From Escherichia phage vB_EcoM_EC001: a stretch of DNA of 64,000 nucleotides. Below are positions 1,314 to 18,801 of the stretch, one piece after another. The notes under the pieces are model-generated. The model was not told the origin of the DNA. It made no database searches and saw only the letters and a list, made by a program, of their open reading frames with translations. The DNA lies in sequence record MN445185.1. The stretch is one strand, 5' to 3'. Within the stretch, counting starts at the first letter, position 1, and each line of letters begins with the position of its first letter. Made by a program: the position numbers and the translations under genes.

Positions 1314-1324
1314 GGAGCAAACGT

Positions 1325-1711: not shown

Positions 1712-2243
1712 CTAGTGTAAACCTTAAGGAGTATATCATGGCGAAGGCCCCTAAAACTGTAGCAAAAGATTCAACGGCAAGCACCGCGACTAAATCTGCA
1801 AAAACGTCTACTACAGAATTTCCACGTTCACCTACCATTCCTAAACCGGATGTAATTGTACCAATCAGTGAACGTCTGAAAACGATTCACATCGAACGTG
1901 AATTTCCGATTGACCTTGGTCAGGAAATCGTTGCGGTTAATCTTGGTAGTGATGTCCGCTTTACTATCTACAAGGGATTAACTAGTGTAAACCTTAAGGA
2001 GTATATCATGGCGAAGGCCCCTAAAACTGTAGCAAAAGATTCAACGGCAAGCACCGCGACTAAATCTGCAAAAACGTCTACTACAGAATTTCCACGTTCA
2101 CCTACCATTCCTAAACCGGATGTAATTGTACCAATCAGTGAACGTCTGAAAACGATTCACATCGAACGTGAATTTCCGATTGACCTTGGTCAGGAAATCG
2201 TTGCGGTTAATCTTGGTAGTGATGTCCGCTTTACTATCTACAA
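1704..2243. repeat. Perfect tandem direct repeat, 2 x 270 bp
   Basis: 1704-1973 is identical base for base to 1974-2243, including the RBS, ATG and first 79 codons of the gene. Confidence 0.95.
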
Positions 2244-2664
2244 AGGCGCGCATCTGAACAACATGGTGCTAACCCGCGGTGATGAAGTTATCGGTCTGTC
2301 TCGTTACGACACGCAAATCGAAAACATCTATCCGGTGTTTGCAGTAGCGATGTTGCGTTTGTTCATGCAGGATAAAGCCGACCTTTGTGGTCAGCTTGCG
2401 GGTATGGCGGATCGTGTTGGTCATATTCTGCCGACGCTGGTGAAACTGTACCCAGTTACGATTGACGTGGCGTTTACTACTGTAGACAACAACCACGGTT
2501 ATATCGTGCTGACCAAAGACGGTAAAGTTATCGCTGGCAATCTGACTGATAACGAAGTGCAGAAACATATGGACAAATTTGCGTTCATGGTGAATCGCTT
2601 AGCGCACGTCAGTGTCAAACATTCCGAAACTTGGACGGCGCTTGCCTCCAAACCGGAACTGTAA
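1738..2664 (+). CDS. Hypothetical protein with duplicated N-terminal module (alternative start 2008)
   Basis: ORF reads through both repeat copies in frame; identical RBS and ATG at 1738 and 2008. Confidence 0.6.
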   Translation: MAKAPKTVAKDSTASTATKSAKTSTTEFPRSPTIPKPDVIVPISERLKTIHIEREFPIDLGQEIVAVNLGSDVRFTIYKGLTSVNLKEYIMAKAPKTVAKDSTASTATKSAKTSTTEFPRSPTIPKPDVIVPISERLKTIHIEREFPIDLGQEIVAVNLGSDVRFTIYKGAHLNNMVLTRGDEVIGLSRYDTQIENIYPVFAVAMLRLFMQDKADLCGQLAGMADRVGHILPTLVKLYPVTIDVAFTTVDNNHGYIVLTKDGKVIAGNLTDNEVQKHMDKFAFMVNRLAHVSVKHSETWTALASKPEL

Positions 2665-2667
2665 TCA

Positions 2668-2705
2668 TTAAGGGGTCTTCGGACCCCTTAATTTTTTGTC
2701 TTTTT
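2668..2705 (+). terminator. Rho-independent terminator
   Basis: Stem ttaaggggtc / gaccccttaa with ttcg loop, then a T-run. Confidence 0.75.
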
Positions 2706-2753
2706 ACGCATTATCCTCATGTTGTGACAGCAATACCTTTTGAGGGCATTACA

Positions 2754-3752
2754 ATGAAAACTGTGGCTAAATTGTTTCGCACCAGCATCCGCACTGCCGA
2801 GTTCCGAAATAACGTCGGTACCGATACTGTACGAGCACGCCGCCTAAAAGAGTTTCTAAAGGACGAGACTTATTCTGTTTACGTGGTGAAGAATAAAGAA
2901 ACCTGGGAGGGTTATTTAGTGGCCACCTATCGACACGGTGACCCTACACTAACCTGTCACTATTTTGAGGAGTTTGTACCTGGGGCGTTCGATAAAGTTG
3001 GTTTGGCCCTTGTGCTCGACCATACCGGATTCGAATATATGTCGTGCCCAGCACCTACTGACGATGTTGAACAAAAACTGGTCGAAAAAGGGTTTGTTCT
3101 TTCAGATATCGTTTGGGCATGTCATTCCAAACTGTTTGACAAAGTAATAACCGCACCGGAAATCAAGATTATTTCTGGTGATGCATACGCAGAACTTACC
3201 AAGGATGATAAAGACGTTATCCTGAATTTGATTAGCGGTGCAATTTGCGAAGAGCTAGAATACGATATGCGTGGCTACTATACGCACATTGGTCCGTTAG
3301 CAGAAACAGTAATAGCAAGAATTCAGCACGCTAATGTGGAGACTGCAATTTGGCGAGACGGTCATGATATCGTCGGTATTGCCCAGATGCGCTTGGTTAC
3401 ACCAGGCGTCGTTGAACTTTCTGGTTTAACCGTTGCACCCACGCACCGTAAACGTGGCATTGGTCGCCGGCTAATGGGCGCGCTATTCGATTTCGCACAA
3501 CGTCATTCCGACCAAGTCTATATTGAAACAGCTGCTGATAATAATCCAGCAAATCACCTGTATGGCAACATCTTACGTTGCAAGCAGGTACTGCGTACAC
3601 TAACGTTGAAACGCGATCCTGAACTTATTAGCTGGAAACGGGTGAATGGAAACCGCGCCGATCGTGTGCTGAAAGAAGAACCTAGCTTTCCGGTGGAGAC
3701 TACAACCAGGCTGACTATTAGTGATATGTTTCAATCTGGCATGAGAGGATGA
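2754..3752 (+). CDS. GNAT-family N-acetyltransferase domain protein
   Basis: C-terminal acetyl-CoA motif HRKRGIGRRLMG; GAGGG SD before ATG 2754; the track 5' extension from 2631 runs through the terminator. Confidence 0.7.
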   Translation: MKTVAKLFRTSIRTAEFRNNVGTDTVRARRLKEFLKDETYSVYVVKNKETWEGYLVATYRHGDPTLTCHYFEEFVPGAFDKVGLALVLDHTGFEYMSCPAPTDDVEQKLVEKGFVLSDIVWACHSKLFDKVITAPEIKIISGDAYAELTKDDKDVILNLISGAICEELEYDMRGYYTHIGPLAETVIARIQHANVETAIWRDGHDIVGIAQMRLVTPGVVELSGLTVAPTHRKRGIGRRLMGALFDFAQRHSDQVYIETAADNNPANHLYGNILRCKQVLRTLTLKRDPELISWKRVNGNRADRVLKEEPSFPVETTTRLTISDMFQSGMRG

Positions 3753-3758
3753 TAACGG

Positions 3759-4577
3759 GTGATAAGACCAATTTTAAAATGGATGGGTGGTAAGAGTCGT
3801 GTACTGCCCGAGCTGCTACAGGTGTTTCCGGATGCTGAGTATTTCGTTGAACCTTTTGTGGGCGCAGGGTCAGTGTTTTTAAACACTAAATACCCGAACT
3901 ATATTCTCGGCGACACGAACCCGGACTTAATCGAGTTACTGACCATGGCGCGCGATCGTCCGGAAGCGCTGATTCTGGAAGCAAAGGCGCTCTTTGCAAA
4001 TGGGACGGACCGCGGTCTGTACATGAAACGGCGTGAGGAATTTAACAGCGAGACAACCACGGGGAAACCTAATCTCCAGCGCGCCGCGATGTTCCTGTAT
4101 CTTACACGTCATGGTTACAATGGTTTGTGCAGATACAATCAGTCGGGTGGGTTTAACGTGCCCTATGGTCAACACCCGAACGGTGTCTATTTCCCTGAAG
4201 AGGAAATTCTGGCGTGGGCAAAACGTTGTTCGGAAACCAACGTCGAGCTGCTCTGCGCGGACTTCCGCGATATCCTAAATAAATGCCCATCTAACGCTGT
4301 GATATACGCTGACCCGCCCTATATCCCTCTTTCGGATACGGCTAAACACGCGCAGTATCACAGCAAAGAATTTTCACAAGCTGACCACCGCGAGTTAGCG
4401 AAACTTTTAAAACAACAAGCTGCCGATGGCAATAAGGTCGTTCTGTCAAACGCAGATACGTTACTCACACGCGATATTTATTACGGCTTTACTTGGCGCG
4501 AAGTTCAGGTAGGTCGATATATGTCTGCGGATGCGAATAAGCGTAAAGCGGTGACGGAGCTAATCGGCACCTTATAA
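3759..4577 (+). CDS. dam: DNA N6-adenine methyltransferase (Dam-like, D12 class)
   Basis: KWMGGK N-terminus, motif I FVGAGSVF and motif IV DPPY; GTG start. Confidence 0.85.
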   Translation: MIRPILKWMGGKSRVLPELLQVFPDAEYFVEPFVGAGSVFLNTKYPNYILGDTNPDLIELLTMARDRPEALILEAKALFANGTDRGLYMKRREEFNSETTTGKPNLQRAAMFLYLTRHGYNGLCRYNQSGGFNVPYGQHPNGVYFPEEEILAWAKRCSETNVELLCADFRDILNKCPSNAVIYADPPYIPLSDTAKHAQYHSKEFSQADHRELAKLLKQQAADGNKVVLSNADTLLTRDIYYGFTWREVQVGRYMSADANKRKAVTELIGTL

Positions 4578-4586
4578 GGTACCAAC

Positions 4587-5390
4587 ATGCAACTATTTAA
4601 TCTATACGGTATGGACAAAAATGACCTGACCGTAGAGTTTAGTGGTCGATTGACCACCTTGGGGCAACTCCGTGAACGGATTCAAGATTTGCGACCCGTC
4701 GCAGACCAAGAAGACGATCATTGGTTAGTGTTGAGCAATAGCGGTCGTGCGCAAATGTATTTTCGTGGATGTCGTTCAGGTATTGTTTACTACATCTACG
4801 AGTTGCACGTGCTTTCCGAGCCCCTGTTCCACGAGTGGAAGCGTTTAACGCGACTCCTGGAAGTGCAGATGCTCGATATTACCTGCTTTCCGCATGACAC
4901 TGAGCACGCAGCACTATACCAGCGCCTGGGGTTCGAAGCTGTAACGAAGCGTGTGGAGATTACTGTCAGTCCGAAATACGGCTTTACGTCAGACCCATCA
5001 GTTGTCCCGTTGGAGACATTGTCATTAGAACAAACCCAGGATGTTTGCTATCTGATGCGACCTACGCTAAAAGACGCAGGAACGCGTGAGATGTTGGGTG
5101 AATTAGCAAATGGTTTTGTCTCTGCGTTCGTGGGGTTGCACGGCCAGAAACCGTTTTCATTAATGCTTTATAAGGAATTCCCGAAGTGCATCATTACTGA
5201 GCAATTCTGCTGCCAAACTTTTGACCCGGTTGCTTACTCGGTAGAGTTTCTAAAACACTACCACGCTATTTTGCATTTGGCGGGACAGAAAGGTAAGAAG
5301 GTCAACATGGGTGTTGCGATAGAGCACGAGTTTCCTTCTATCGAAGGGTTAGAGTATCGTGTAATCACGCACCACTACACCCTTGCGTAA
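4587..5390 (+). CDS. Hypothetical protein
   Basis: Long ORF, tight spacing, AAGG SD. Confidence 0.6.
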   Translation: MQLFNLYGMDKNDLTVEFSGRLTTLGQLRERIQDLRPVADQEDDHWLVLSNSGRAQMYFRGCRSGIVYYIYELHVLSEPLFHEWKRLTRLLEVQMLDITCFPHDTEHAALYQRLGFEAVTKRVEITVSPKYGFTSDPSVVPLETLSLEQTQDVCYLMRPTLKDAGTREMLGELANGFVSAFVGLHGQKPFSLMLYKEFPKCIITEQFCCQTFDPVAYSVEFLKHYHAILHLAGQKGKKVNMGVAIEHEFPSIEGLEYRVITHHYTLA

Positions 5391-5399
5391 GGAGAGAAT

Positions 5400-6212
5400 A
5401 TGCTGAGAGTTATCGAACGCACGGAGAGGATTCTGGACCGAACGTGGTTGGAAGACCGTAAGGCGTTATCGTTGTTAAATGATATCGATCCTTCCACGTT
5501 ACAAGATGAACGTCGTCTTTACTACCGAATCTTTGAAGTGTTCAGTCGGGACACGGTTGAGCCTGACGCGATCGTGCTCTGTCTGGACCACGGATACATG
5601 TTAGAAGTTATCAATATGGTTCGTGCTTTAGACGCCCAGTTAACCTCGCTTGCGGATTCCTTACTTCGTGCAGCTGGGCGTAACTACGCGATGCATTTTA
5701 CTCGTTCTGAAGGGGACGAATATGCACGCATGGGCTTTTGTTGCGAAACGATAAACTACCGCAAAATTAATACATTGGTGCCTAGCCACGATGAGGATTT
5801 CTGTGGGGATGTCAGTTCGTTGTTCGATAGTAAGAAAGCGTTCTTGGATTGGGTTAGAATGCTTTACGGTAAAAGCTCTATCTACTCAACGCTCGTTACG
5901 GGCGGGAGGCTGATGTCGTGGCGAAACGCTGATAGCTACAAGTTGACAGTGCTTTCGCACCGTGGGCATCGCTGGGTTATCGGTGGATGGTTTACCGCAG
6001 AAGGGGTGGTTACTCTAAGCCGAGAGGAGTTCGGGCTGTTGATGCACTGTATCCAGTCTGAATTACCAGTGGGGGATGAACTGATTTACACCTACCACCA
6101 ATATACTGGGGGGCCTGCCGCAATGTGGTTATTAGAAAACGGTTGGCTACCCGAAAGTTATGTCTACGGACGTGCCCTGAAAACTACTAATGGAGAAAAT
6201 AATGCAAATTAA
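5400..6212 (+). CDS. Hypothetical protein
   Basis: Long ORF, AAGGAGAG SD. Confidence 0.6.
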   Translation: MLRVIERTERILDRTWLEDRKALSLLNDIDPSTLQDERRLYYRIFEVFSRDTVEPDAIVLCLDHGYMLEVINMVRALDAQLTSLADSLLRAAGRNYAMHFTRSEGDEYARMGFCCETINYRKINTLVPSHDEDFCGDVSSLFDSKKAFLDWVRMLYGKSSIYSTLVTGGRLMSWRNADSYKLTVLSHRGHRWVIGGWFTAEGVVTLSREEFGLLMHCIQSELPVGDELIYTYHQYTGGPAAMWLLENGWLPESYVYGRALKTTNGENNAN

Positions 6213-6480
6213 TCGTACAGTGTCGAAGTCTAAAGAAGTCGTTTACAACGTTGAAGACGGTGATGTAATGCAGTTCCGTGCCGTTATTGACGAACAGCAC
6301 GTACTCCAAGTTGTTTATTCGAAAGAAGAGATGACTCGTGCACATAGTCGCGTGTTGGAAAAACTCGTCGCGAAAGCCAAACAGCGCGACGGTATTAAAT
6401 CCTACAACGTCATGTACGGTTATCAGTTACGTGAGGTGGAAGGGGAGCTGTTAATCACCCCTGTTCCGGTAACGGCATAA
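6202..6480 (+). CDS. Hypothetical protein
   Basis: ATG 6202 with GGAG SD; track start 6190 is upstream in frame. Confidence 0.55.
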   Translation: MQINRTVSKSKEVVYNVEDGDVMQFRAVIDEQHVLQVVYSKEEMTRAHSRVLEKLVAKAKQRDGIKSYNVMYGYQLREVEGELLITPVPVTA

Positions 6481-6520
6481 TTCGCCATTGTATGACCCTT
6501 AAATACCGTTGAGGTTAACT

Positions 6521-7003
6521 ATGGATATGATCGAATTAGGTCAGCTCCCTCAGCACGATTTTGATTTAGGCGTGCGTCATGAGGAAGGGGCCGACGCGAA
6601 CACACTAATGGCCCGCTACTACGAGCTACTGACCGGTCAACCGTTGGACGATGAACACATCAACCGTTTTGAAAAACTGTTGGCACAACTCATCACCTCT
6701 AACGCAGAACGCATTGGCATGTTAAACGAAATGAACTTTGCTGATGTGGAGCCGTCTGACGCTCAGAAGATTCTTATCGATGGTCCTGTACCAAGCGATG
6801 AGGTACAAGACCTTCTGGCAGGTATCCGTGCAGGCTTCGATGAAGCTGCTGAGAAATACGCGGAAGAGCTGGCAGATGTCGATTTGGCTGCGCCGGTTGA
6901 CCCGAATCCGTCTGCAGAGGAGACTGCAGCTGCGAAATTGAAACTCGCACGCTTTATCTGTGCTGCTGTCCTGACAGACGACCGCGAAGAAAACCAACTG
7001 TAA
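6521..7003 (+). CDS. Hypothetical acidic protein
   Basis: ATG 6521 with GAGG SD; track used TTG 6509. Confidence 0.6.
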   Translation: MDMIELGQLPQHDFDLGVRHEEGADANTLMARYYELLTGQPLDDEHINRFEKLLAQLITSNAERIGMLNEMNFADVEPSDAQKILIDGPVPSDEVQDLLAGIRAGFDEAAEKYAEELADVDLAAPVDPNPSAEETAAAKLKLARFICAAVLTDDREENQL

Positions 7004-7008
7004 GGTCT

Positions 7009-7044
7009 ACCTCCTTGCCCATGGGTAAGGAGGTCCCTTTTTAT
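7009..7044 (+). terminator. Rho-independent terminator
   Basis: Stem acctccttgccc / ggtaaggaggt, then a T-run. Confidence 0.6.
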
Positions 7045-7099
7045 TTACATCAGTCCACTAACTTATGTGAAACAACCCACGTAATGAGGAATTAAGAGA

Positions 7100-7417
7100 A
7101 TGTGGTTAAGTGCTATTCATCGTGACCTGCCAAAACGTGAAGTGACTCTTTCTGTCGATGCGGAACCGATTACCGTTGGTGTCGCAAACTTCGACCGTAT
7201 GGAAGAAGGACAGTATGTCGTGGTGGACAACGATGAAAACGAATTCATGTTATTCCATCCCGAAGTTGATGCGTCTGAAATCCGCGAGGGTTCTATCTTG
7301 TTTTCTTGGCAAGACAAAGAAACTAAACAGTGGATGTGGTGCGTTGCTAACACAACCAATGAAAAAGGTACCGCGTATGCCCCAGGACAGCTTCATGTCG
7401 AACCTAAACCCCATTGA
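7100..7417 (+). CDS. Hypothetical protein
   Basis: GAGGA SD; protein-like composition. Confidence 0.55.
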   Translation: MWLSAIHRDLPKREVTLSVDAEPITVGVANFDRMEEGQYVVVDNDENEFMLFHPEVDASEIREGSILFSWQDKETKQWMWCVANTTNEKGTAYAPGQLHVEPKPH

Positions 7418-7709
7418 GCCCACGCTGACGCACCAGGAACTGCACGTCCGTTTTATTCGGGCGTTCACACCCCCGTTAGGTGGTGAGGTACACGATCGTT
7501 CCGTGGTTGCAGAAGTTAAAGGTATCGGCGAAGAACTAATGACACTGTCTAATATTGTGACGGGTGTTGAGTTCACGTTACCGTTAAACGTATTTCGGTT
7601 TATTCCGCGCGTAAACGAAACGCTGCTCATCGACCGTGTACATCATCGGATTATGGCGCAGGTACATCCTAGCCGTAAAGAGTATGTGCGCTTAGAGATG
7701 ATGGTCTAA
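7377..7709 (+). CDS. Hypothetical protein
   Basis: Protein-like C-terminal part of track ORF 7158-7709; start chosen at an internal ATG overlapping the end of the previous gene. Confidence 0.5.
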   Translation: MPQDSFMSNLNPIEPTLTHQELHVRFIRAFTPPLGGEVHDRSVVAEVKGIGEELMTLSNIVTGVEFTLPLNVFRFIPRVNETLLIDRVHHRIMAQVHPSRKEYVRLEMMV

Positions 7710-7717
7710 CGCACGAC

Positions 7718-7747
7718 TTTTCAGATAGATGTTATTTTACTGAACCT
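7718..7747 (+). promoter_or_regulatory. Conserved promoter-like motif, class 2
   Basis: tttcagatagatgttat then 5 nt then tgaacct, repeated at 16118-16146; extended -10-like TGnTATTTT. Confidence 0.4.
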
Positions 7748-7771
7748 AACTGTAAAGAAAGGAAAAAGTAG

Positions 7772-8077
7772 ATGGCTAAACAATACATAATTGTTAAACG
7801 CGCAGGTACGACTCTGCTGTACGTGGAGAAAGGTTGTGAGAACACTGCAACCGCCAAGAAACTGAATCTGCAAGGGTTTCTGTATCAAGGTCTCCGCGCG
7901 GGTTTGACCATCACTTTTAAAGGCTTACCACAGGCGAAGAATCTGCGCGTCGTACGTGCAGACGGTGTAGAGCGTGCCTTGGTAGCCGACACCCCGGTTG
8001 ATACTATCCCTGCCAGTAAGAAGGCAGCGAAAGCAACCAAGAAAGTCGACGATAAACGCAAACGCGTTGTCGCTTAA
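7772..8077 (+). CDS. Hypothetical protein with basic Lys-rich tail
   Basis: AAGGAAAAAG SD; ORF ends at a terminator. Confidence 0.6.
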   Translation: MAKQYIIVKRAGTTLLYVEKGCENTATAKKLNLQGFLYQGLRAGLTITFKGLPQAKNLRVVRADGVERALVADTPVDTIPASKKAAKATKKVDDKRKRVVA

Positions 8078-8083
8078 GTAGTC

Positions 8084-8124
8084 CCCTACCTAACTTCGGT
8101 TAGGTAGGGTTCTTTTTATTTTTA
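8084..8124 (+). terminator. Rho-independent terminator
   Basis: Stem ccctacctaac / gttaggtaggg with ttcg loop, then a T-run. Confidence 0.75.
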
Positions 8125-8143
8125 ACCCTCTGAGGGATATACC

Positions 8144-8596
8144 GTGTTTCAATGTTCAGTCGTCAATGATGCGGAATTGGCCGTGTACAAGCAGCGCACA
8201 ATCCGGGCGCTGGATGCTGAAAAACCAGTCGATGTTAAAACGCGTGCAATCATTAGGGCATTTAGCGAATGGCCGAACATCGCAACCGTTTGGGCATTCA
8301 CGGGAGAAGTTCGCAAAGACGGAGACAAGCTTCGTACACGTAGACACCACAGCTTAACATTTGTGGCAACCGAGGCGGGTCTTAAAGACATTAACCATTT
8401 ATTAGAAGGATGGCAGCCGCACGAGTACGGGAAACGTTTTCAGTTAAACTTTACTTGGCTGCGTCAAGAAGGCAATGCGAATCTCTGTTATCCAAGCTGG
8501 ACGTTTAGACTCAACTATCGACCCGACCCAGATGTGGTGGAAAGTGTGATGGAGCACTGGCTCGCACTCGCAATTTTTACAGAACACAACCATTAA
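8144..8596 (+). CDS. Hypothetical protein
   Basis: GTG start with GAGGG SD. Confidence 0.55.
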   Translation: MFQCSVVNDAELAVYKQRTIRALDAEKPVDVKTRAIIRAFSEWPNIATVWAFTGEVRKDGDKLRTRRHHSLTFVATEAGLKDINHLLEGWQPHEYGKRFQLNFTWLRQEGNANLCYPSWTFRLNYRPDPDVVESVMEHWLALAIFTEHNH

Positions 8597-8624
8597 ATGA
8601 AGACACCCTTAAGGAGAATTAAAG

Positions 8625-9095
8625 ATGCCAGTTTTATACGGCGGCGTGGACCTGGATGTTCTGGGTCGGTTTAAACTACGAACGTCTAAGGCGCTCGTAA
8701 ACGGTTGGGTTGAGAAAGGCGTACGGGATGCGTGTGAGGTCATTTGTAGTTATCCTGGTGCCACGACAATGTGGTCGTGTCATGGACACGGACCATATTC
8801 TAAAAAGAACACACCGGGGGAATTTCATGTGGTGTTCGTTCTTGGCATCGGCTTTGAACACAAAGCACATGAGCTTGTCGCTGAGTTAATGAAAGCGGAT
8901 ATTCCGCCACTGTGGGATTTGTGCATGGCGAGACTCTTGTACCCTGATGAGGATTTCGTCTACGACCTCAGCGAGATCACCCTGAAGAACACGTATAACG
9001 CATGGAAAATAACGTATCGGCATCTGCATACCGAACAAACTCTTCGCGAAATTCGTAAAGTATTCCACACTGTCTGTAAAAAGGTTTTTAACTAA
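8625..9095 (+). CDS. Hypothetical protein
   Basis: AAGGAG SD. Confidence 0.6.
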   Translation: MPVLYGGVDLDVLGRFKLRTSKALVNGWVEKGVRDACEVICSYPGATTMWSCHGHGPYSKKNTPGEFHVVFVLGIGFEHKAHELVAELMKADIPPLWDLCMARLLYPDEDFVYDLSEITLKNTYNAWKITYRHLHTEQTLREIRKVFHTVCKKVFN

Positions 9096-9793
9096 TGGCT
9101 AAGCAAAAGAAACCCCGTAACAAAAAGTATAACCCAAAAGCTGCTACAGAGCGTACAGCGCACACCATCGCTGAAAACGCGCTGAACCGCATCACCTTTA
9201 TTGGCAGCTCCATTCGTCGCCTCGGACCGTACGCGGGCCGTGGTTTTCACTTTACGGCAAGTCCTCGTATTCGTGCTATCGCCACAGATATGTTAGTCGG
9301 TGGGCTGTTCGACCAACCGCGACCATGGCATCTTTGGGTGATGCACCTCACTGAACTCGACACCGGTGAAATTGTAACAGAAACCGCAGTTGCCACACTT
9401 GACGATTATACTTTGGCGGACTTCTGTGAACACGCTGAGAAGTTAGTTAAATCGCTACGTCCTGAACAGGAAGAAGGGAAATATTTCGGTTATGCGTTTG
9501 TGGCCGCCCCGAACGAGCGGTACGACTTCAAAGCGGAAGAAGACCAACTCATTGAAAACTTCATGCATTCTGGACTACTTGATACGTCGTTACATCTGTC
9601 GGAAGAACAACAGTTCGTTAGTCGTGCAGAAATGGCCAACCTGCTCGTTGGTTATACTCGGAAGTTTGACGTGACCGTTGAACACGTCAAAGAAGTACCA
9701 GAGATTGTGAGCAAGAAAGACGAGGTGGTGCTTCCGGTTGACGAGGTTGTCAGTAAAGTAGCGACTGCGATAGGGGCAACGGGGGATTACTGA
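9095..9793 (+). CDS. Hypothetical protein
   Basis: ATG overlaps the upstream stop (translational coupling). Confidence 0.6.
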   Translation: MAKQKKPRNKKYNPKAATERTAHTIAENALNRITFIGSSIRRLGPYAGRGFHFTASPRIRAIATDMLVGGLFDQPRPWHLWVMHLTELDTGEIVTETAVATLDDYTLADFCEHAEKLVKSLRPEQEEGKYFGYAFVAAPNERYDFKAEEDQLIENFMHSGLLDTSLHLSEEQQFVSRAEMANLLVGYTRKFDVTVEHVKEVPEIVSKKDEVVLPVDEVVSKVATAIGATGDY

Positions 9794-10002
9794 TGAATCT
9801 ACGTTGGCCGATCGCGGCTGCTGTGTTGTTTTGTATTTATATCGCCATCAGCACCAGTACCCGCACTGCAGAACGTCGCGAGACCGCAACCAGTACGTTT
9901 AGGATGTGCATTGACCGCGTAGACCCGAACAGTACCACTTATCCTGACGCGGTGAACGCGTGTCGCAAAGCGGTTGCTGAGATATTGAAAGAGGAAAAAT
10001 AA
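9793..10002 (+). CDS. Small hypothetical protein with N-terminal hydrophobic helix
   Basis: ATGA start/stop overlap; hydrophobic segment PIAAAVLFCIYIAIS. Confidence 0.5.
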   Translation: MNLRWPIAAAVLFCIYIAISTSTRTAERRETATSTFRMCIDRVDPNSTTYPDAVNACRKAVAEILKEEK

Positions 10003-10229
10003 TGGAAAACCTTACGCCGATTGAGATAGTGGCGCTATTCGACCGTTACGTATACGGACAAACGCAGGCAAAGAAAATGCTGGCGATTGCGCTACGTAAT
10101 CGATATCGTGCCAATAAACTCAACGTAGTGGACCGTATGTCGGTCCACAAACAGAACCTTTTAATAGAAGGTCCAACAGGCACGGGTAAAACGGCGTTGA
10201 TGCGTGAAGAAAAACAGAAACAAAAGTGA
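10002..10229 (+). CDS. Truncated HslU/ClpX-like AAA+ N-terminal fragment (75 aa)
   Basis: LTPIEIV..GQ..AKK.LAIALRNRYR and Walker A GPTGTGKT resemble the HslU N-terminus; ORF stops just after the P-loop. Confidence 0.6.
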   Translation: MENLTPIEIVALFDRYVYGQTQAKKMLAIALRNRYRANKLNVVDRMSVHKQNLLIEGPTGTGKTALMREEKQKQK

Positions 10230-10237
10230 GGTAAAGG

Positions 10238-11245
10238 ATGGCGAAGCTCGTTTCGTTTTCAGCAGGGTTGGATTCCACCTGGATAATGTATCAGCTGCTA
10301 TGCAAAGCACCGGCCAATGAAGCACGACATGTCCGTCCTGCGTATTTCTCCATGTGGAATGGAGGTAACGCGAACTTCATGGAAATTCTTTGTAGCGTGG
10401 CCATTGTTGAACGGTTGATGGATAGACACCATGCACAAACCGAACATGTTACATGGGCGGTGCTCGGGGAAGAGAACTTCCAGCCTGTCGTTACCGCTGG
10501 ATATGCTAACGGCTGGTCGCCTCTGGTTCAGCAGGGCAATGTTGTTAACGGTCTCGCTAAACTGATGTGTGGTATTACGCGCAAACAGCACCACGCCTAT
10601 GCAGTTGTTGGTTGGAATAAGCTAGATGCGTTGGAGAATAGTCTAGAGCTGGGAGATTGGACATTAGACGAGTACGCTCGCTTAAAGAACCTCTATAGCG
10701 AATTGATGTATTTCCAAGATCATGCCGGTCGCGTTCCACCGCTTCTAACACCTGCGTGGGATAAAGAGAAACTGGAAATGTGGCAGGAGTTGCCGGAAGA
10801 TATTCGTAGGTTGGTACAGGTCAGTAACAACAACAACTACGAATTCGCGATAGACCGTGAGAATAACGTGCTCATCGTTTATGCCCATCCGTCGGCAAAG
10901 TCGCAGAATTATCGTAGTCTTGGTATTACACCGTCAGTGGGATGGGAGATTAAAATCAACGATGCTTACAGACGGGTATGGTGTTCTGCTCTCGGTAGTG
11001 CTATTTCTGCTATGGGTTTGGGCGTACCGGCTTTTGCTAACTTTAAGGACCCGGAAAGAAACCACACGACCTTTACGGTAAGTGAAGATACTAACCGGTT
11101 ATGTATCACATCGTTTACCGCGGAAGAGTGGTGCGCGTATGCGCCACATTTTAAAGCGCTTCAGGAGAAAGAAAAAGAGATAGCGAAAAATGCCAAAGCA
11201 AGTAAAGCTGTGGACGCTCCAACTGGCGAAGTGGCGGATAGCTGA
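10238..11245 (+). CDS. Hypothetical protein with divergent PP-loop-like motif
   Basis: N-terminal SFSAGLDST resembles the SGGxDS PP-loop; GAGG SD. Confidence 0.55.
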   Translation: MAKLVSFSAGLDSTWIMYQLLCKAPANEARHVRPAYFSMWNGGNANFMEILCSVAIVERLMDRHHAQTEHVTWAVLGEENFQPVVTAGYANGWSPLVQQGNVVNGLAKLMCGITRKQHHAYAVVGWNKLDALENSLELGDWTLDEYARLKNLYSELMYFQDHAGRVPPLLTPAWDKEKLEMWQELPEDIRRLVQVSNNNNYEFAIDRENNVLIVYAHPSAKSQNYRSLGITPSVGWEIKINDAYRRVWCSALGSAISAMGLGVPAFANFKDPERNHTTFTVSEDTNRLCITSFTAEEWCAYAPHFKALQEKEKEIAKNAKASKAVDAPTGEVADS

Positions 11246-11573
11246 AAAACGGAATTTGCCAAAGCTGGATATAACGGTTAAGTCGGGGCTGAAATATTTG
11301 GCACCCGACTGGGACTTTCTGATGGACTACAAGAAGTCTGACAAAGGCCCCGACGCAGAAGCTGCGTATACCAAACGCTACCTGCAGAAACTTAGTCGGT
11401 TGTTTGATGAAGACACTGATAAGTTGATAGAGATTCTCCGCCAGGGCGAGGTCGTACTAATGTGCTATTGCCCACCGGGGAAATTCTGTCATCGCCACTT
11501 GCTAGTTTCTTACCTTATTGAAATCGGTGAGTGGTTCGGTTATGAAGTAATTTACATGGGCGAGTTATCGTAA
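11190..11573 (+). CDS. DUF488-like hypothetical protein
   Basis: C-terminal MCYCPPGKFCHRHLL resembles the DUF488 signature; overlaps the upstream gene by 56 bp. Confidence 0.5.
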   Translation: MPKQVKLWTLQLAKWRIAEKRNLPKLDITVKSGLKYLAPDWDFLMDYKKSDKGPDAEAAYTKRYLQKLSRLFDEDTDKLIEILRQGEVVLMCYCPPGKFCHRHLLVSYLIEIGEWFGYEVIYMGELS

Positions 11574-11584
11574 GGAGAGTCCTC

Positions 11585-11980
11585 GTGAAATTGATTATGC
11601 CTAAAACCGTTCCTAATCAGGATATGGTTACGACTACACTGTTTTCTGAATCATTACGCAACTCTGTACGTCAGACCGCTTCACGTCTAGACGTGGCAGT
11701 TGAAGAACTCGACCCAGAAGTCTTCATGAAGTATGCGTTTATTGCAGAAGGTTACGCGATCGCCCTGAGTTATGCGCGGTATGTCGATGACGTGACAGAA
11801 GCTAAACGTTATTTAGAAGGCTGTTGTCAAGTTTTCCGTGAAGAAATCACCGAGATGGAGATGGTTGACCGTGGCTTACCTGAATTTGTAAAGGTGGGTT
11901 ACGATAAGCTGTTGCAATCCATCGCGGATGAGATCAAACGTCGCGGGTTAACTGTTGTGCACAGTGCTACACTGCACTAA
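11585..11980 (+). CDS. Hypothetical protein
   Basis: GTG start with AAGGAGAG SD. Confidence 0.55.
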   Translation: MKLIMPKTVPNQDMVTTTLFSESLRNSVRQTASRLDVAVEELDPEVFMKYAFIAEGYAIALSYARYVDDVTEAKRYLEGCCQVFREEITEMEMVDRGLPEFVKVGYDKLLQSIADEIKRRGLTVVHSATLH

Positions 11981-11993
11981 CAGCGTACGAGTA

Positions 11994-12035
11994 GGCTACC
12001 ACACGATCATATGTGTGGTAGCTTATTTTTTTGTT
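11994..12035 (+). terminator. Rho-independent terminator
   Basis: Stem ggctaccacac / gtgtggtagc, then a T-run. Confidence 0.65.
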
Positions 12036-12048
12036 TCTGGAGGCGTTA

Positions 12049-12588
12049 ATGGCAGACCGCTATCAGCCCGACCTAACACTGAGTTCAAAAGCGCTAGTCT
12101 TAGCGCTTATCAATCATGACAATAATCTGTCACTTACTGATAAAGAGATTGTGATTAGGGATATTGATGCGAACGCTTCACCAGACATCATCCCGAAGAA
12201 CACACAGGCAAGCGTGGCCAAAGCACGTAAGCCAAATGGGAAAACCGTGACAGTCTATTATGACCGGTTAAGTGCGTCTACCGTGCTAGACAGTTTTCAG
12301 CCGCTATTGGTGTCCTTAGACGGAACCGAAACGGACATTCAGCAAATTGCCAGTGTGATTAACGGTTACTGCGGTACAAACTTGTCAGCAGCAGACTTAC
12401 AGTCTGCGCCAATCGTGGTCAGCGACGATTTTACCCTGGTGAATATCACTGGCGATTCCCCAGCATGGCTTGGGACATTTATCGCAACCCTGTTTACCAA
12501 AAATGAGTACGTTCTTTCAACTGACACTGACACGGTGCTGTGTCTGGATGAGAACACTGTGCTCGTACTGACTGACGAGGAAGAGTAA
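12049..12588 (+). CDS. Hypothetical protein
   Basis: ATG 12049 with GGAGG SD; track TTG start 12031 lies in the terminator T-run. Confidence 0.6.
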   Translation: MADRYQPDLTLSSKALVLALINHDNNLSLTDKEIVIRDIDANASPDIIPKNTQASVAKARKPNGKTVTVYYDRLSASTVLDSFQPLLVSLDGTETDIQQIASVINGYCGTNLSAADLQSAPIVVSDDFTLVNITGDSPAWLGTFIATLFTKNEYVLSTDTDTVLCLDENTVLVLTDEEE

Positions 12589-13073
12589 TGGCCAGCCCAG
12601 TTAAAAAGCAAACATTTGAGAGCTTACCATTTTATACCGATATCACCAACGTGAAAGATGGGATGTTCTTGTTTATCAAAGATGGGAAAGCGTATCAGTA
12701 CCCGCTCGAGATGTTGGGTGTCCAGAAGGTTGCTCAGGGTGTCGTTATTCGTGATGCGGCGTATGAGTTGGAAGCGGCAGCAGCCACTGATTGGTACCTA
12801 GGACTGTCGCAACCGGAAACCGATCTCACTATTAAACCTGATGGAGTATTGGGGGCATTTCGGTACACGCTCAACCTGACTATTCTTCAGGGAACGGGAG
12901 CCAACAAAATTAACTGGCCTTCCAACGTGAAGTTCCCCCATGATGCATACCCGGTGCTGTCGTACCAGAAAGGGAAATCGGACATGATTACCCTGACTAC
13001 AATCGACGGCGGTTACACCTGGAAAGGTGGCGTTAGTGGAACAGGATATACAGAATGGGTAGAAACTCCTTAA
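12588..13073 (+). CDS. Hypothetical protein
   Basis: ATG overlaps the upstream stop. Confidence 0.6.
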   Translation: MASPVKKQTFESLPFYTDITNVKDGMFLFIKDGKAYQYPLEMLGVQKVAQGVVIRDAAYELEAAAATDWYLGLSQPETDLTIKPDGVLGAFRYTLNLTILQGTGANKINWPSNVKFPHDAYPVLSYQKGKSDMITLTTIDGGYTWKGGVSGTGYTEWVETP

Positions 13074-16072
13074 TCGCAGTACGGACAGGGATTAACAATG
13101 CCCTGTCGATGGCCTACGGTCATCAGGACTTCGTTCGTCGAAATACCGGCTTAACTAACGACGCCCACAATGACCATTATCTGATTAACCCAGAAGGGGT
13201 GCTATCTAATAACCGGCATTTCATTGCTGACTCCATGGCAGTGTATCAACCTAATGGTGACGCCACCACAGAAGGTCAATCGTTGCTGATTATTGGGTAT
13301 TGCCACATGTACATCGCTACCAAAAACCAGATGTGGTTAGATGCGGCGATTCGTGCATGGGAAGCGTACGCTACCTACTATTACGCAGGTCAGGCCATTC
13401 CTGAGTCACCGCAACGTTGGATTTGTAACTGGCTAGTTAACGGTAAAGAACCGGTGCTGTCAGACTATCCAGTGCATCCGTCCGAGCCAACCCACGGTGG
13501 TTACAAGTGTGTACCGGTGACGTTTACGAACGGGCGTTGCCAGATACCCCAAGGCGCACCATTCTTTGGTGAATATCTGAACAATTTCTTTTCTGCGCAT
13601 CGTGGCCATCCTACTTGGGGTGCGGTTAATGCCGACGTACAGAAAATTAAGGAATCGGAAGACGGGTTAATTGACTGGTCTAAAGTCCCTGATTACTTAA
13701 TCGTCAATCCAGAGAAACCTTACGATGTAAAAGCGTGGGTGGACTGGAACACGATGCTAAACGACCCAACCGGATATACACCAATGTGGGGCGGTTCTAC
13801 CTCGAAAGGTCCGTTGTACGAGCCTGACTGGTTTGTTGTGTGGACAGGTGAGAAGGTTCAGGATGGCGAGGTCATTGAATCTGGGTTGCCTGATGCCCAG
13901 AAAGGAACCGTACAATTAAAGGACACCAGTATCAACGGTGTGTATTTGATTAACTACGCTTCCCAGGTGCCAGTAGAGCACGGCGGGTATTTGTTTGGCC
14001 GTAATGAGCCATGGCACAACCGTCCTGTGCACACACCGTTAAAAGGCTCTGTCAACCAAATGGGTAACGCGGCAGATGCGGAAGTGTGGTTTATTGATGC
14101 CTGTTATCTGCTCTGGCGTATCACAGGTGAACCGCGCTATAAAGCCGCACTAGACTCTGTGTTCTATACAGCGCATGAATACACGTATATCGATGCGAAG
14201 GACAAGTTTTTCCGACGTTCTAAGCTAGCCGAAACACCATTTACAGATGGTATCTCGTACGACTATAAATACCCCAGCACTGTTGAGGTCGCTTACAGTC
14301 GTGATGAAAATGGTGATATTGTGTTCCGTTCTGAGAAAGCTGTGCAGAACTTTATGGAACAGCAAGCCGTGCGTTTCAGGATAAACAGTCAATCGAAGTT
14401 ACGTGTGACGTATGGCGGTGTTTGCGACAACGGTGATGCGCTTGCGTGTAAAGTGATGGTGGATATCAACCCCGTTAAAGCGGATACTGAAGAAGTAAAC
14501 TGGTACGGCTGTACGCTTCCAGGATCAACATCGATGGAAGTAAAACAGCATGACATCGGTTTAGGGCATCTGGCCAGAATGACTAATCCGGCCAACGGCG
14601 AAGATTACATCATTGCCGATGCGCGAGCATGTTCAGATTACGGTGGGTGTACGTGGCAGGAGAAGTTTGAGAGCAACATCTACGATGGTCGTTCAGGCAC
14701 AATCGTAGAAGCGTTATTCCCGAACGACGATGCGGGTTTCATTATCGGTTTCTGGTTAACCGATGCCGGTGTTGCACCCCCACAGTCAATTGTCTATCGT
14801 GCCGATGGTGATTTCAACTTCCGTTTCGAAGATACCGACAAGTGGCGTTGGTGGTGGATGTTGCCCGCGACTAACGGGGAATGGAAACAGGTTATTATTC
14901 GCCCTGAAGACGCAACACTCTCGGGCTATCAACCCGACCACGATACCGACGTCGAACCAAAACCGGCTGCGCCAAACTATACAACTATCGATCGGGTAAC
15001 CATACTGCCCGATTCGGCTGTGGAGAATGCGCACTTTAGCTGGTATTGCGTAAACGATGTTCCGCCACTGTTTAATGGAGACGATGGTTGGACGTTAACG
15101 TTCCGTATTGTAATTCGGGGAGGTTCTGCATTTACGGGTAAAGTGGGCGATTGTACGATAAAAGATTACCGTCTTGACTCGCTCGCGTATTGTCCAGGAA
15201 CGATACCGTTCTCGAACATTTATTCGGAAGGAACGTATCAGCTAGGTGCATGGCACGGGATGCCGTATCCTGGCTATCAGTATCCGTTTATGTACACCAT
15301 ACACACCGATGATCGCTACAAAGTCTGGCTCTTAAATCAGATTCGGTTTATGCACGATTCACAAACCAACTACCAGGCGCAGCTAGGTGAGTTAGGTCCA
15401 GGTTGTGCGGCGTATATTTGGAACCGTTGGGATAACTACTCTTACGGCCCGGCAGATACGTGGACAACGTTCCATTGGGGAGATGGACATCCGTGGGCAG
15501 GTTATCAGCCGCGCGCGTATAACGCCGCTGCGCGTTGTTGGTACGAATTAGTTGTGCGTGGTAAAGAGGTTCCACCTGAGCTAGTAGTGTACGTTGAAAA
15601 TTGGGCTAAGTGGCTCGTAGGGTTCTTAGACCGCTTTGACAACCACACTCCGAATGAATTCCCTACAGCACCAAATAAACCGGTATGGGTAGAGAACGAT
15701 TTCACAGCACATATGTGTGCGCTCTGGATAGCAGGCAGCGCTTATGCGGCAATGGCTGGCTGTACAGTGGAAGGGTTGAGCCGTATTATGGATATGGGGA
15801 TGAAAGAGATGGGTGACAACTTCACCGTCACAGACATTCCAGGAAAAGCCATTAACGGTGCCTGGTCTCCGTGGGCAAACCCTACCACGGATAACGGTCA
15901 GGCTTTTGGGTTTTATACTGGAGAAGCGATGCGTGCAATCGGGTTGTATCTCCTCTATAAAGAACACGGCCCAGGACATGATATTTATCGTGACTTGGCA
16001 ATACCCGACCACACAACAGCTTCACTCGATATAACGTTTACTATCCCAGACGATCCGCTCGAAACTAATTAA
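13055..16072 (+). CDS. Large Trp/Tyr-rich hypothetical protein (1005 aa), possible glycan-acting or structural protein
   Basis: 3-kb uninterrupted ORF; aromatic-rich composition; no motif recognised. Confidence 0.7.
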   Translation: MGRNSLIAVRTGINNALSMAYGHQDFVRRNTGLTNDAHNDHYLINPEGVLSNNRHFIADSMAVYQPNGDATTEGQSLLIIGYCHMYIATKNQMWLDAAIRAWEAYATYYYAGQAIPESPQRWICNWLVNGKEPVLSDYPVHPSEPTHGGYKCVPVTFTNGRCQIPQGAPFFGEYLNNFFSAHRGHPTWGAVNADVQKIKESEDGLIDWSKVPDYLIVNPEKPYDVKAWVDWNTMLNDPTGYTPMWGGSTSKGPLYEPDWFVVWTGEKVQDGEVIESGLPDAQKGTVQLKDTSINGVYLINYASQVPVEHGGYLFGRNEPWHNRPVHTPLKGSVNQMGNAADAEVWFIDACYLLWRITGEPRYKAALDSVFYTAHEYTYIDAKDKFFRRSKLAETPFTDGISYDYKYPSTVEVAYSRDENGDIVFRSEKAVQNFMEQQAVRFRINSQSKLRVTYGGVCDNGDALACKVMVDINPVKADTEEVNWYGCTLPGSTSMEVKQHDIGLGHLARMTNPANGEDYIIADARACSDYGGCTWQEKFESNIYDGRSGTIVEALFPNDDAGFIIGFWLTDAGVAPPQSIVYRADGDFNFRFEDTDKWRWWWMLPATNGEWKQVIIRPEDATLSGYQPDHDTDVEPKPAAPNYTTIDRVTILPDSAVENAHFSWYCVNDVPPLFNGDDGWTLTFRIVIRGGSAFTGKVGDCTIKDYRLDSLAYCPGTIPFSNIYSEGTYQLGAWHGMPYPGYQYPFMYTIHTDDRYKVWLLNQIRFMHDSQTNYQAQLGELGPGCAAYIWNRWDNYSYGPADTWTTFHWGDGHPWAGYQPRAYNAAARCWYELVVRGKEVPPELVVYVENWAKWLVGFLDRFDNHTPNEFPTAPNKPVWVENDFTAHMCALWIAGSAYAAMAGCTVEGLSRIMDMGMKEMGDNFTVTDIPGKAINGAWSPWANPTTDNGQAFGFYTGEAMRAIGLYLLYKEHGPGHDIYRDLAIPDHTTASLDITFTIPDDPLETN

Positions 16073-16077
16073 GTGTA

Positions 16078-16115
16078 TACCAGCTATCCTTCGGGGTGGC
16101 TGGTACGCTTTATTT
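16078..16115 (+). terminator. Rho-independent terminator
   Basis: Stem accagc..cc / gg..gctggt with ttcg loop, then a T-run. Confidence 0.55.
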
Positions 16116-16117
16116 TA

Positions 16118-16146
16118 TTTCAGATAGATGTTATCTCAGTGAACCT
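16118..16146 (+). promoter_or_regulatory. Conserved promoter-like motif, class 2
   Basis: Same 17-mer tttcagatagatgttat plus tgaacct as at 7718-7747. Confidence 0.4.
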
Positions 16147-16199
16147 CTGAAATTTACGTTTCAATCAGAGCTTATGTCATGTATTAAGGAGCACTTAAA

Positions 16200-16532
16200 A
16201 TGTCTAAAGTCTATCACATTGCGGTATTGCGTCAGGCAACTGACCTTGAAAGCGACCGTGAACTTCGAATGCAGGAAGCCATTCTGAGCACTGTTAAAGA
16301 ACTTAACCAAGCAAACAATTTCGATGCACGCTTCGAAGCGTTACCAGTAAGCCGCAGTGCTTTCTACGGCAGTCAAATACTGGCAACCCAGTATGCGATG
16401 GCTTTAAGTGACTTGCGCAATAACCCTAGCCCAGAGACCGCGGCGAAGATGAACAAACTGTCGCTATGGATGAATAACCTGGATGTCCCCGCAGCATCCA
16501 CTGTAAGCGGTTTGGGGGTGGTCAATGGGTAG
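16200..16532 (+). CDS. Hypothetical protein
   Basis: AAGGAG SD. Confidence 0.6.
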   Translation: MSKVYHIAVLRQATDLESDRELRMQEAILSTVKELNQANNFDARFEALPVSRSAFYGSQILATQYAMALSDLRNNPSPETAAKMNKLSLWMNNLDVPAASTVSGLGVVNG

Positions 16533-16860
16533 AGTAATCCGTGTTGCCAGACCAATGCGTCTCAATAGGACACCAATGATAAATCGTGATATCGGTGAAG
16601 CTGTAAAACAGTTGTCGAATATCGACGGTTACACCTTTAAAGTGATAACACTGTACGACTACCCAGAAGGCAAAGTTCCGCAAGAGGCGCTGGATAAATT
16701 CGTTAATGTATTAGACGATTGCCTTAAGAGCCCAACGGACGTAAATCTTATCAAACTAAACACCATGTCCCTTGAACTGTACCGGCTGCGTAAAATGGGC
16801 ATTCATGCTCGCATCGGTAAAGGTGACCAAACGTTGGCCGAATACTGGGCTAAACAATAA
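16525..16860 (+). CDS. Hypothetical protein
   Basis: Overlapping start, translational coupling. Confidence 0.6.
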   Translation: MGRVIRVARPMRLNRTPMINRDIGEAVKQLSNIDGYTFKVITLYDYPEGKVPQEALDKFVNVLDDCLKSPTDVNLIKLNTMSLELYRLRKMGIHARIGKGDQTLAEYWAKQ

Positions 16861-16887
16861 GCTATTTTAAATCCTAAGGAGCATTAA

Positions 16888-17406
16888 GTGAATATTATCA
16901 TGAACCTGTATACCAAACGGGAACGTAACGTTTTAGAATCTGGCGTTGCCCCGGAAGTATTGGCTGCGGGGGATATTAGTATCGACCCATTGAAAGTGAA
17001 AGTCGCAGAACTGTTCCCTCGCGACGAATGGGACATCTGGTATTTCCGTTGTTCGTCGGTATTGAATGCAATCAAACAACTGTCTGATTATCAACCTGGT
17101 CCGTATATCGGTACTTGGCACTGGTACGTTCCACGCACACCAAACTTCCTTTACCTGCACGACGATGATAAACGTACTCATATTCGCACTGTAGCGACGC
17201 CTGCGCGTTTGGAGCGTTATCTGGAGCTAATCCACGACCGGCCTCGTAACGAGCTGCAAAGCATCGTAGAGGTGCTCAGACAGGTACCTTTAGACGGTAT
17301 CCTGGAACTGGACATGAAAATCGCCGATCGTCCGAGACATTACTGGGAATTTTCCTGGGTAGACGCGAAGTACGAAAACCATAACGTTATCTATCTGAAG
17401 CGTTAA
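16888..17406 (+). CDS. Hypothetical protein
   Basis: GTG start with AAGGAG SD. Confidence 0.6.
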   Translation: MNIIMNLYTKRERNVLESGVAPEVLAAGDISIDPLKVKVAELFPRDEWDIWYFRCSSVLNAIKQLSDYQPGPYIGTWHWYVPRTPNFLYLHDDDKRTHIRTVATPARLERYLELIHDRPRNELQSIVEVLRQVPLDGILELDMKIADRPRHYWEFSWVDAKYENHNVIYLKR

Positions 17407-17416
17407 GGGGGACAGG

Positions 17417-17737
17417 ATGTTGAACCGGTTACTTGCGCTGATTAACAAGCGACAAAAACAACTGTACGAAGAAAATCGAGAATTAGCTGCCGCTATCCGT
17501 CGTGTACAGGCCGATAACTTGCAGTTAAGACACGACCTCGCGAAACTAGGTGTTAACGCGAGTAGGCTTTGCACGCACATTAGCCGCTGCCACGATATCA
17601 TCGAACGTATTGGACACTACCATCTTACGTCTCCTGCGCGTCGCGTCTATGACGCGGCCGTCCAGGGATTAAAAGATACCAGGAATGCGTACGACGAGAT
17701 GTTAGAAGAGTTTAGCAAACGTGAGGATAAATACTAA
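17417..17737 (+). CDS. Hypothetical protein
   Basis: GGGGGA SD. Confidence 0.6.
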   Translation: MLNRLLALINKRQKQLYEENRELAAAIRRVQADNLQLRHDLAKLGVNASRLCTHISRCHDIIERIGHYHLTSPARRVYDAAVQGLKDTRNAYDEMLEEFSKREDKY

Positions 17738-18120
17738 TGGAAATGCCAACGAACACCGACTTAGCACTGGCAATCGAACACATGAAAAACCATCAGCTGA
17801 CGTTACTGAATGCAGGCACAGAAGGGCAACGTCAAGGGTATGCGCTCGTTGCAAAAGCAGCGTTAGAACTTAACAAGATTCTACTCGCTAAACTTTACGG
17901 GCTGGAAAACAGCGTGCTCCATGCGTCGCACCTGGGCGAAGCCAGCGAGTTAGTTACGAATGTGCGGCTGTATGCAAGTCGTGAAATGGAACGTTTAACC
18001 AACGAATGGAATGTCCAGTGTAACGGCGAGCGTGCTGATAAAGATCCGCGTAAAGTCGCACTGACGCCGGGCGTGTACATCAAAGACGGCACCATTGACG
18101 AATACAGCGGATTTAACTGA
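17737..18120 (+). CDS. Hypothetical protein
   Basis: ATG overlaps the upstream stop. Confidence 0.6.
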   Translation: MEMPTNTDLALAIEHMKNHQLTLLNAGTEGQRQGYALVAKAALELNKILLAKLYGLENSVLHASHLGEASELVTNVRLYASREMERLTNEWNVQCNGERADKDPRKVALTPGVYIKDGTIDEYSGFN

Positions 18121-18143
18121 TCGGCGGATAAGGGTGATTGTGA

Positions 18144-18569: not shown

Positions 18570-18801
18570 CGACTATCAAACCGCAGATATGTTGCTACAG
18601 TCATTTGTACCGTTACGTGCTGAGTATTACGAAATCGCGTTCCTGGGCGATGAATATTGTGTCCGCACGCAAGGGCGTGAATACGAAGCAGTACGCGTTC
18701 CACGCACACTCGGTGGGGTGATGATGCTCATCGCTAATATCGAAGCACTCAATGCGAAATGTGCGTTATACATCGCACAGGGAGGCCGCAATGGATTTTA
18801 A
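18481..18801 (+). CDS. Hypothetical protein overlapping the upstream gene by 89 bp in another frame
   Basis: Protein-like translation; start uncertain. Confidence 0.4.
   Translation: MKEKPVSISLRGLTIHEIQKYLLEGGKLTDDYQTADMLLQSFVPLRAEYYEIAFLGDEYCVRTQGREYEAVRVPRTLGGVMMLIANIEALNAKCALYIAQGGRNGF

Follow-up and report, generated by a model that had tools for sequence, protein, structure and literature searches.

A 75-codon open reading frame (ORF) in the 64,000-nucleotide stretch of Escherichia phage vB_EcoM_EC001 DNA analysed here (MN445185.1; the window) is very probably the non-functional deletion scar of a phage HslU-like gene, passively transcribed in its operon. A deletion junction lies within the ORF, the DNA found between its two sides in related phages is missing, intact orthologues of the gene are present in those phages, and all of the AAA+ motifs that follow Walker A are lost. 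The gene can be described as decaying because an intact copy occupies the same slot in relatives and the junction could be mapped.

Composition of the ORF and its deletion junction

The original prediction, made from the sequence alone, described a stand-alone 75-aa ORF resembling the N-terminus of HslU or ClpX and ending just after the Walker A loop, and proposed alignment and HMM searches against these proteins as a check. Those searches gave significant matches and the description was confirmed. When all PDB chains were searched with phmmer, the best match was HslU (1g4a_E, E = 4.9e-14) and ClpX ranked second (best E = 6.2e-11); in PHROGs, the ORF matched positions 2–70 of the 552 positions of phrog_4339 (E = 1.9e-31). 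The similarity to HslU is real and far beyond chance. Residues 1–69 pair end to end with residues 1–69 of HslU, with approximately 33 of the 69 identical (~48%, hand count), and the stop codon is reached 11 residues past Walker A. Pfam returned only sub-threshold generic P-loop matches, the best to AAA_7 (20.5 bits against a cutoff of 25.8); Pfam alone was therefore unable to confirm HslU, and the PDB and PHROGs searches were needed.

The description needs one correction, at the tail: the last seven residues (EEKQKQK) and the stop codon are foreign to HslU and belong to the C-terminal end of another gene, orf110. Residues 1–68 of the HslU-like protein of Salmonella phage 1252 map to window positions 10002..10205 and residues 101–110 of orf110 map to 10197..10226, each at 100% identity (tblastn). 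At the nucleotide level, 10002..10204 is colinear with 2503..2705 of the phage 1252 locus (L003) at ~97–99% identity, and 10205..10229 equals the end of orf110 in both phage 1252 (L003 4354..4686) and SPN3US (L001 3076..3408). The window copy carries no amino-acid changes relative to phage 1252 and amounts to ~12% of the intact HslU-like protein.

Several relatives matched the window in two or three pieces that covered more DNA than the query, and the annotation of these relatives was read. In blastn alignments the window falls into two colinear blocks with a 9-bp overlap. In intact relatives, one copy of this 9-bp sequence, GTTGATGCG, is found in codons 66–68 of the hslU-like gene and another in codons 101–103 of orf110, and both are read in frame as Leu-Met-Arg. 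The DNA absent from the window amounts to 1956 bp in comparison with phage 1252 and 2428 bp in comparison with SPLA3. In phage 1252, the gene that starts from this TAATG overlap with the 69-aa ORF upstream runs for 586 codons and precedes a gene of 110 codons. Its 586-aa product is identical to the window ORF over the first 68 residues; past ...GPTGTGKTALMR it continues as VLKTKFGLPVLELDMTAFTESGYVGRE..., and the product of orf110 ends in ...NAKLMREEKQKQK before its stop (the end of this 110-aa neighbor is also given as ...DLNAKLMREEKQKQK). The intact 586-aa gene is located between the same flanking genes in Salmonella phages 1252, SPLA3 and MET_P1_082_240, and the latter two have the fullest arrangement: hslU-like, orf161, orf110 and orf335. 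Immediately past the junction, the window continues with the 3’ end of orf110 and then orf335, colinear with its relatives. The features are collected in Table 1.

Table 1. Features of the scar and its surroundings, in window coordinates
Feature	Position	Strand	Basis or remark
Terminator-like hairpin, 11-bp stem and T run	8084..8109	+	Upstream end of the scar’s transcription unit
Shine-Dalgarno-like AGAGGA and TAATG stop/start overlap with the upstream 69-aa ORF	9990..10004	+	Sequence; same in full-length alleles
75-aa chimeric ORF	10002..10229	+	ATG start; ORF list; sequence MENLTPIEIVALFDRYVYGQTQAKKMLAIALRNRYRANKLNVVDRMSVHKQNLLIEGPTGTGKTALMREEKQKQK
5’ remnant of the hslU-like gene (N-terminal helices, strand beta-1, Walker A loop)	10002..10204	+	Colinear with phage 1252
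Walker A / P-loop GPTGTGKT, residues 57–64	10170..10193	+	Read from sequence; aligned to E. coli HslU GPTGVGKT
Deletion junction, 9-bp microhomology GTTGATGCG	10196..10204	+	Three-way alignment, window against both copies in phage 1252 and SPLA3
orf110 3’ end, EEKQKQK and TGA	10205..10229	+	Identical to the ends of phage 1252 and SPN3US orf110
GAGGTAAAGG, ribosome-binding region and orf335 ATG	10228..10240	+	Identical in orf110-keeping alleles; untouched by the deletion
orf335	10238..11245	+	Next gene after the scar
Terminator-like hairpin, 17-bp stem and T run	11989..12028	+	Downstream end of the scar’s transcription unit

These alignments indicate that the ancestral Seoulvirus locus had the order orf69, hslU-like (586 aa), orf161, orf110, orf335. 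A single illegitimate, microhomology-mediated deletion between the two copies of GTTGATGCG would have taken out codons 69–586 of the hslU-like gene, the entire orf161 and codons 1–100 of orf110. The outcome is an in-frame chimera of 75 codons, composed of hslU codons 1–68 and, as codons 69–75 of the chimera, the end of orf110 with its stop. The chimera retains the hslU start signals, and the orf110 stop stands just ahead of the orf335 ribosome-binding site.

The AGAGGA and TAATG sequences are the signals from which translation of the hslU-like gene originally started, kept intact, and the native spacing between stop codon and ribosome-binding site ahead of orf335 is preserved at the scar. The scar is located within a run of eight tightly packed ORFs on the + strand (8144..11980), between the two hairpins. 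Both hairpins have perfect stems and lie in intergenic gaps; they are likely to act as intrinsic terminators or as RNA-processing sites at the two ends of the eight-gene block. Given its position in this packed unit and its kept start signals, the scar is probably still transcribed and may be translated. A scan for sigma-70 promoters found sites no more numerous than in shuffled sequence, which says little about transcription because jumbo phages use their own RNA polymerases.

Other genes of the unit were also inspected. The ORFs at 8144..8596 and 8625..9095, tested as possible paralogues of each other, proved not to be paralogous. The start of orf335, MAKLVSFSAGLDSTW, resembles a PP-loop motif (SxGxDS), and the gene is labelled ‘QueC/ExsB-domain’ in pSal-SNUABM-04; it has no Pfam match at E<=1 and belongs to phrog_8825, whose function is unannotated. 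orf335 overlaps by 56 nt an ORF at 11190..11573 (+) encoding a DUF488-N3a protein (E = 7.3e-12).

The intact HslU-like gene and its deletion-prone module

The 586-aa protein aligns with E. coli HslU (1g4a_E, E = 8.6e-49) in two blocks, residues 1–109 and 402–568, with similarity that extends over Walker B, the sensors and the C domain, and has an insert of ~290 residues where HslU has its I domain. It bears a GYVG pore loop and, within residues 402–568, Walker B, sensor and related motifs (VVFLDEFDK, ELQGRFP, GARRL), and Pfam AAA_2 and AAA match it above threshold. The window ORF has none of these. The GYVG pore-1 loop, at residues 90–93 of the intact orthologue (ESGYVGRE), is absent from the ORF; Walker B, sensor-1, the Arg finger and sensor-2 are absent from the ORF and from the rest of the window (tblastn); and, at 75 aa against ~440–590 aa for full-length proteins, the I domain and the C-terminal small helical domain are missing. 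The expectation that a P-loop fragment of this kind would not be a functional AAA+ ATPase is thereby upheld: hexamer assembly, ATP hydrolysis and docking on HslV are all beyond a product that lacks the parts following Walker A. Judged by established HslU structures, the fragment accounts for a single strand of the five in the AAA+ core, and the elements that act between subunits (Arg finger, small domain) all lie outside it. Single-sequence AF2 prediction, which is weak evidence, gave a low-confidence, non-compact helical model (pLDDT 69.8, pTM 0.36). A scar product consisting of one strand and a P-loop is presumably without activity of its own and drifting.

Other jumbo phages have full-length orthologues in syntenic positions. 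Those of Erwinia and Salmonella jumbo phages share 50–72% identity (72% for SPAsTU/STsAS and pEa_SNUABM_29, ~50% for Machinavirus), RAY-like phages have an orthologue at 32% (RAY gp116), and CR5-like phages also carry the gene. The intact gene has a dN/dS of 0.11–0.12 across three near-identical full-length alleles, a value that indicates purifying selection. The syntenic orthologues in other jumbo phages, together with this selection, indicate that the long form is ancestral and functional. The full-length gene is an old accessory gene of jumbo phages with no recent capture from a host. The original prediction had offered a decaying captured gene as one possibility; decay is supported by the intact relatives and the mapped junction, but recent capture from the host is not, given syntenic orthologues at 32–72% identity. 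The homologue in Erwinia phage RAY, gp116 (L012 2501..4210), was reported to be accessory in nucleus-forming phages, and fused to GFP it localises inside the phage nucleus (PMC10299810).

Machinavirus and CR5-like jumbo phages have an HslV-like gene ~2.5 kb upstream of the hslU-like one. The example from Erwinia phage Huxley, gp125 (L013 55..582), encodes 175 aa beginning MTTFIAG..., with an HslV-like N-terminal Thr; it is labelled ‘HslV-like’ in some records and has no Pfam match at E<0.01. With Huxley gp125 as the tblastn query, no match was found in the window or in any Seoulvirus record, including those with an intact hslU-like gene, and no HslV-like partner was found in the window with either gp125 or E. 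coli HslV (approximate sequence) as queries. The Seoulvirus HslU-like ATPase may consequently be an orphan without a peptidase, and this orphan status could explain the loss of the gene in Seoulvirus.

The scar is one of several deletions in the same three-gene module. In SPN3US and others, ~27 of 35 Seoulvirus records, the hslU-like gene was lost by a separate 1750-bp deletion at GCGCTrTT, which leaves 13 hslU codons that are read as part of a 28-codon ORF. Phage 1252 and Proteus phage 7 have lost orf161 by a 472-bp deletion at AACCC, and SPLA5c, SEGD1 and SaP7 have lost orf110 by a 337-bp deletion at a 4-bp repeat. With presence and absence written in the order hslU-like/orf161/orf110, the haplotypes +++, +-+, -++, -+-, --+ and --- are all observed, the window being ---. 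All six occur in viable isolates, so the three genes are dispensable accessory genes.

In the case of orf161 (SPLA3, L008 4842..5324; SPN3US, L001 2594..3079), the protein belongs to phrog_7478, annotated ‘head maturation protease’ (E = 1.9e-41), has a weak Pfam match to Peptidase_S80 (E = 0.013) and is labelled ‘virion structural protein’ in SPAsTU. It is missing from several viable phages and therefore cannot be an essential prohead protease. An extra ORF of 61–67 aa is present between the hslU-like gene and orf161 in the more remote relatives SPAsTU (L009 4255..4458) and Huxley (L010 4252..4437) and is missing in SPLA3 and MET_P1, which adds further indel variation to the module.

Distribution of the scar and alternative readings

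The window derives from a jumbo phage of the genus Seoulvirus (SPN3US-like): megablast with 9000..12000 and 1..25000 matched 35 Seoulvirus records at ~95–97% identity, and two of these phages, Escherichia phage vB_EcoM_Lh1B and Salmonella phage JN03, show full colinearity with it. JN03, Lh1B and SPLA1a have the identical junction, as does one SRA contig (L014). In a large protein database, the short form is represented by two clusters only, of 75 aa (13 members) and 77 aa; the 75-aa query returned no full-length proteins from this database, probably owing to word-index limits. The Lh1B record (OK428535.1) contains N bases in the remnant ORF and its flanks (L002 ~2580, ~2690), and for this reason its ‘putative heat shock protein’ (UGO35845.1) has X residues in the P-loop region.

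The remnant ORF is open in all five known versions (75–77 aa), and several of these carry substitutions. JN03, SPLA1a and the 13-member cluster carry the P-loop change T59R, at a position where HslU, ClpX and every full-length homologue examined have T or S; the Walker A sequence GP[T/S]G is otherwise invariant. The SPLA1a remnant also has A11S and L12P. The SRA-contig remnant has M46H and S47T, along with insertion of one A in the A-run just past the junction, a +1 frameshift that changes the tail to EEKTETKVR before the stop. Changes on the deletion alleles number 5 non-synonymous and 3 synonymous, compared with 26 and 57 in the intact gene; the difference is not significant (Fisher p = 0.11), and the counts are suggestive of relaxed constraint. 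Pairwise dN/dS over the 68 kept codons is uninformative, as most of the polymorphism is either older than the deletion or came in by recombination. The 75-aa form with T59R also appears in NCBI as a Salmonella enterica serovar Typhimurium hypothetical protein (DNL62_06485) on a contig of 239,615 bp. This contig is a complete jumbo-phage genome in a bacterial assembly and reflects contamination, a carrier state or pseudolysogeny.

Seoulvirus genomes are mosaic at a scale of a few hundred bases (window 8600..11700 against relatives). Within 3 kb, the nearest relative of the window alternates between Lh1B/SPLA3-like, 1252-like and SPLA1a-like sequences, which indicates that jumbo phages in co-infections often undergo homologous recombination with each other. 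The two flanks of the scar differ accordingly in what they record. Downstream, all four deletion alleles carry the SPLA3 haplotype (13 diagnostic SNPs in 10342..10579, shared with SPLA3 only), and the SNP at 10298 is private to them; together these point to one origin. Upstream, the flanks are mosaic and do not form one group. Over the remnant and the last 100–200 bp upstream, full-length phage 1252 is closest to the window (2 differences in 204 bp), and Lh1B is closest to full-length SPLA3 (4 differences in 204 bp, 6 in 1400 bp upstream). The simplest history would be a single deletion in an SPLA3-like genome and recombination thereafter. The disparate left sides could also be read as independent deletions at the same 9-bp repeat in different Seoulvirus lineages, a history that would leave the interpretation of the ORF as a scar unchanged. 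Recurrence of this kind is unlikely: the right side is shared down to the private SNP, an independent deletion in a 1252-like genome should have left a 1252-like right flank, which is not observed, and the genomes are visibly mosaic everywhere.

The abrupt stop just past Walker A might instead mean that the gene is split and not lost, with the rest located elsewhere or restored by an intron, an intein, frameshifting or read-through; large phages often have genes that are split or interrupted by introns. This idea was rejected and its probability is close to nil. Residues 69–586 have no tblastn match in the 64-kb window and, in 50,697 phage records, reach >60% identity only in the six phages with the intact gene, and among Seoulvirus only in the five full-length carriers. 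The DNA past the junction is colinear orf110 and orf335 sequence; the missing 2.4 kb is absent, as are tblastn matches in the window to orf161 and to residues 1–100 of orf110.

A different possibility, raised by the original prediction for host HslUV or ClpXP, is that the peptide is under selection as an anti-host factor, serving as a decoy or dominant-negative subunit that poisons HslU/ClpX or the HslU-like hexamer of a co-infecting relative. A good Shine-Dalgarno sequence and translational coupling are kept, the frame has stayed open in every known version, the N-terminal 69 residues are ~48% identical to host-type HslU, and several phages isolated independently carry the allele, as does the 13-member protein cluster. 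However, the origin of the ORF is accounted for fully as the by-product of a three-gene deletion, and selection is not required to explain it. The sister copies have acquired radical changes (T59R in the P-loop, the helix-breaking L12P, M46H/S47T and the frameshifted tail), and the fragment has one of five core strands, no inter-subunit elements and no compact fold in the AF2 model. Moreover, the ~27 of 35 Seoulvirus records that have lost the gene through another deletion, with 13 codons left, argue against a need for such a peptide in the genus. The decoy proposal thus found no positive support, and we regard it as highly improbable. Slightly broader, and also very improbable, is the suggestion that scar peptide made during infection interferes with AAA+ hexamers and gives an edge to deletion-bearing phages. 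Its most plausible target would be the HslU-like protein of a co-infecting Seoulvirus, because the N-terminus of the scar is identical to it, with host HslU or ClpX as the alternative. The same low likelihood is shared jointly by a milder version, in which the in-frame deletion is favored for keeping the translational coupling of the operon.

In keeping with the deletion-scar reading, the 75-codon ORF is an ordinary textbook deletion remnant and not a purpose-built decoy, and in itself the finding matters little. The scar should carry no ‘heat shock protein’ annotation and should not be treated as an anti-host factor. The by-product of the analysis is a natural knock-out series for the hslU-like/orf161/orf110 module in SPN3US-like jumbo phages. 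The HslU-like unfoldase, whose RAY homologue gp116 localises in the phage nucleus, is dispensable in Seoulvirus, and its role could be addressed with isogenic-like pairs, for instance SPLA3 and Lh1B. Interference by the scar, were it true, would mean a competitive edge for deletion-bearing phages.

Comparison with known systems

T4 PinA and T7 Gp4.5, inhibitors of Lon, resemble the present case only in the proposed principle, a small protein from the phage directed at an ATP-dependent protease of the host. To our knowledge, both are conserved genes and not fragments of the protease that they target, whereas the window ORF is a truncation product with signs of drift. With HslU (ClpY), the unfoldase of HslUV (E. 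coli, PDB 1G4A/1E94), the ORF shares the N-terminal helices, beta-1 and the Walker A sequence GPTGxGKT. Unlike HslU, it ends at residue 75, also lacks the C-terminal tail, and takes its last 7 residues from another gene.

Another close likeness is to the phrog_4339 family (RAY gp116; phage 1252 XAN61431.1; MET_P1_082_240 ‘hslU’), of which the window ORF is the 5’ end of a member. It shares the genomic slot and start signals of the family, and its residues 1–68 are 100% identical to the phage 1252 protein, whereas family members are 569–586 aa long with the ~290-residue insert at the I-domain position. As an event, the scar resembles the microhomology deletions and gene remnants of phage accessory regions, with precise breakpoints at a short direct repeat, intact orthologues in near-identical genomes and sister deletions in the same module. 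Its one peculiarity among such remnants is that both repeats are read in frame as L-M-R, which leaves a clean small ORF with a native stop.
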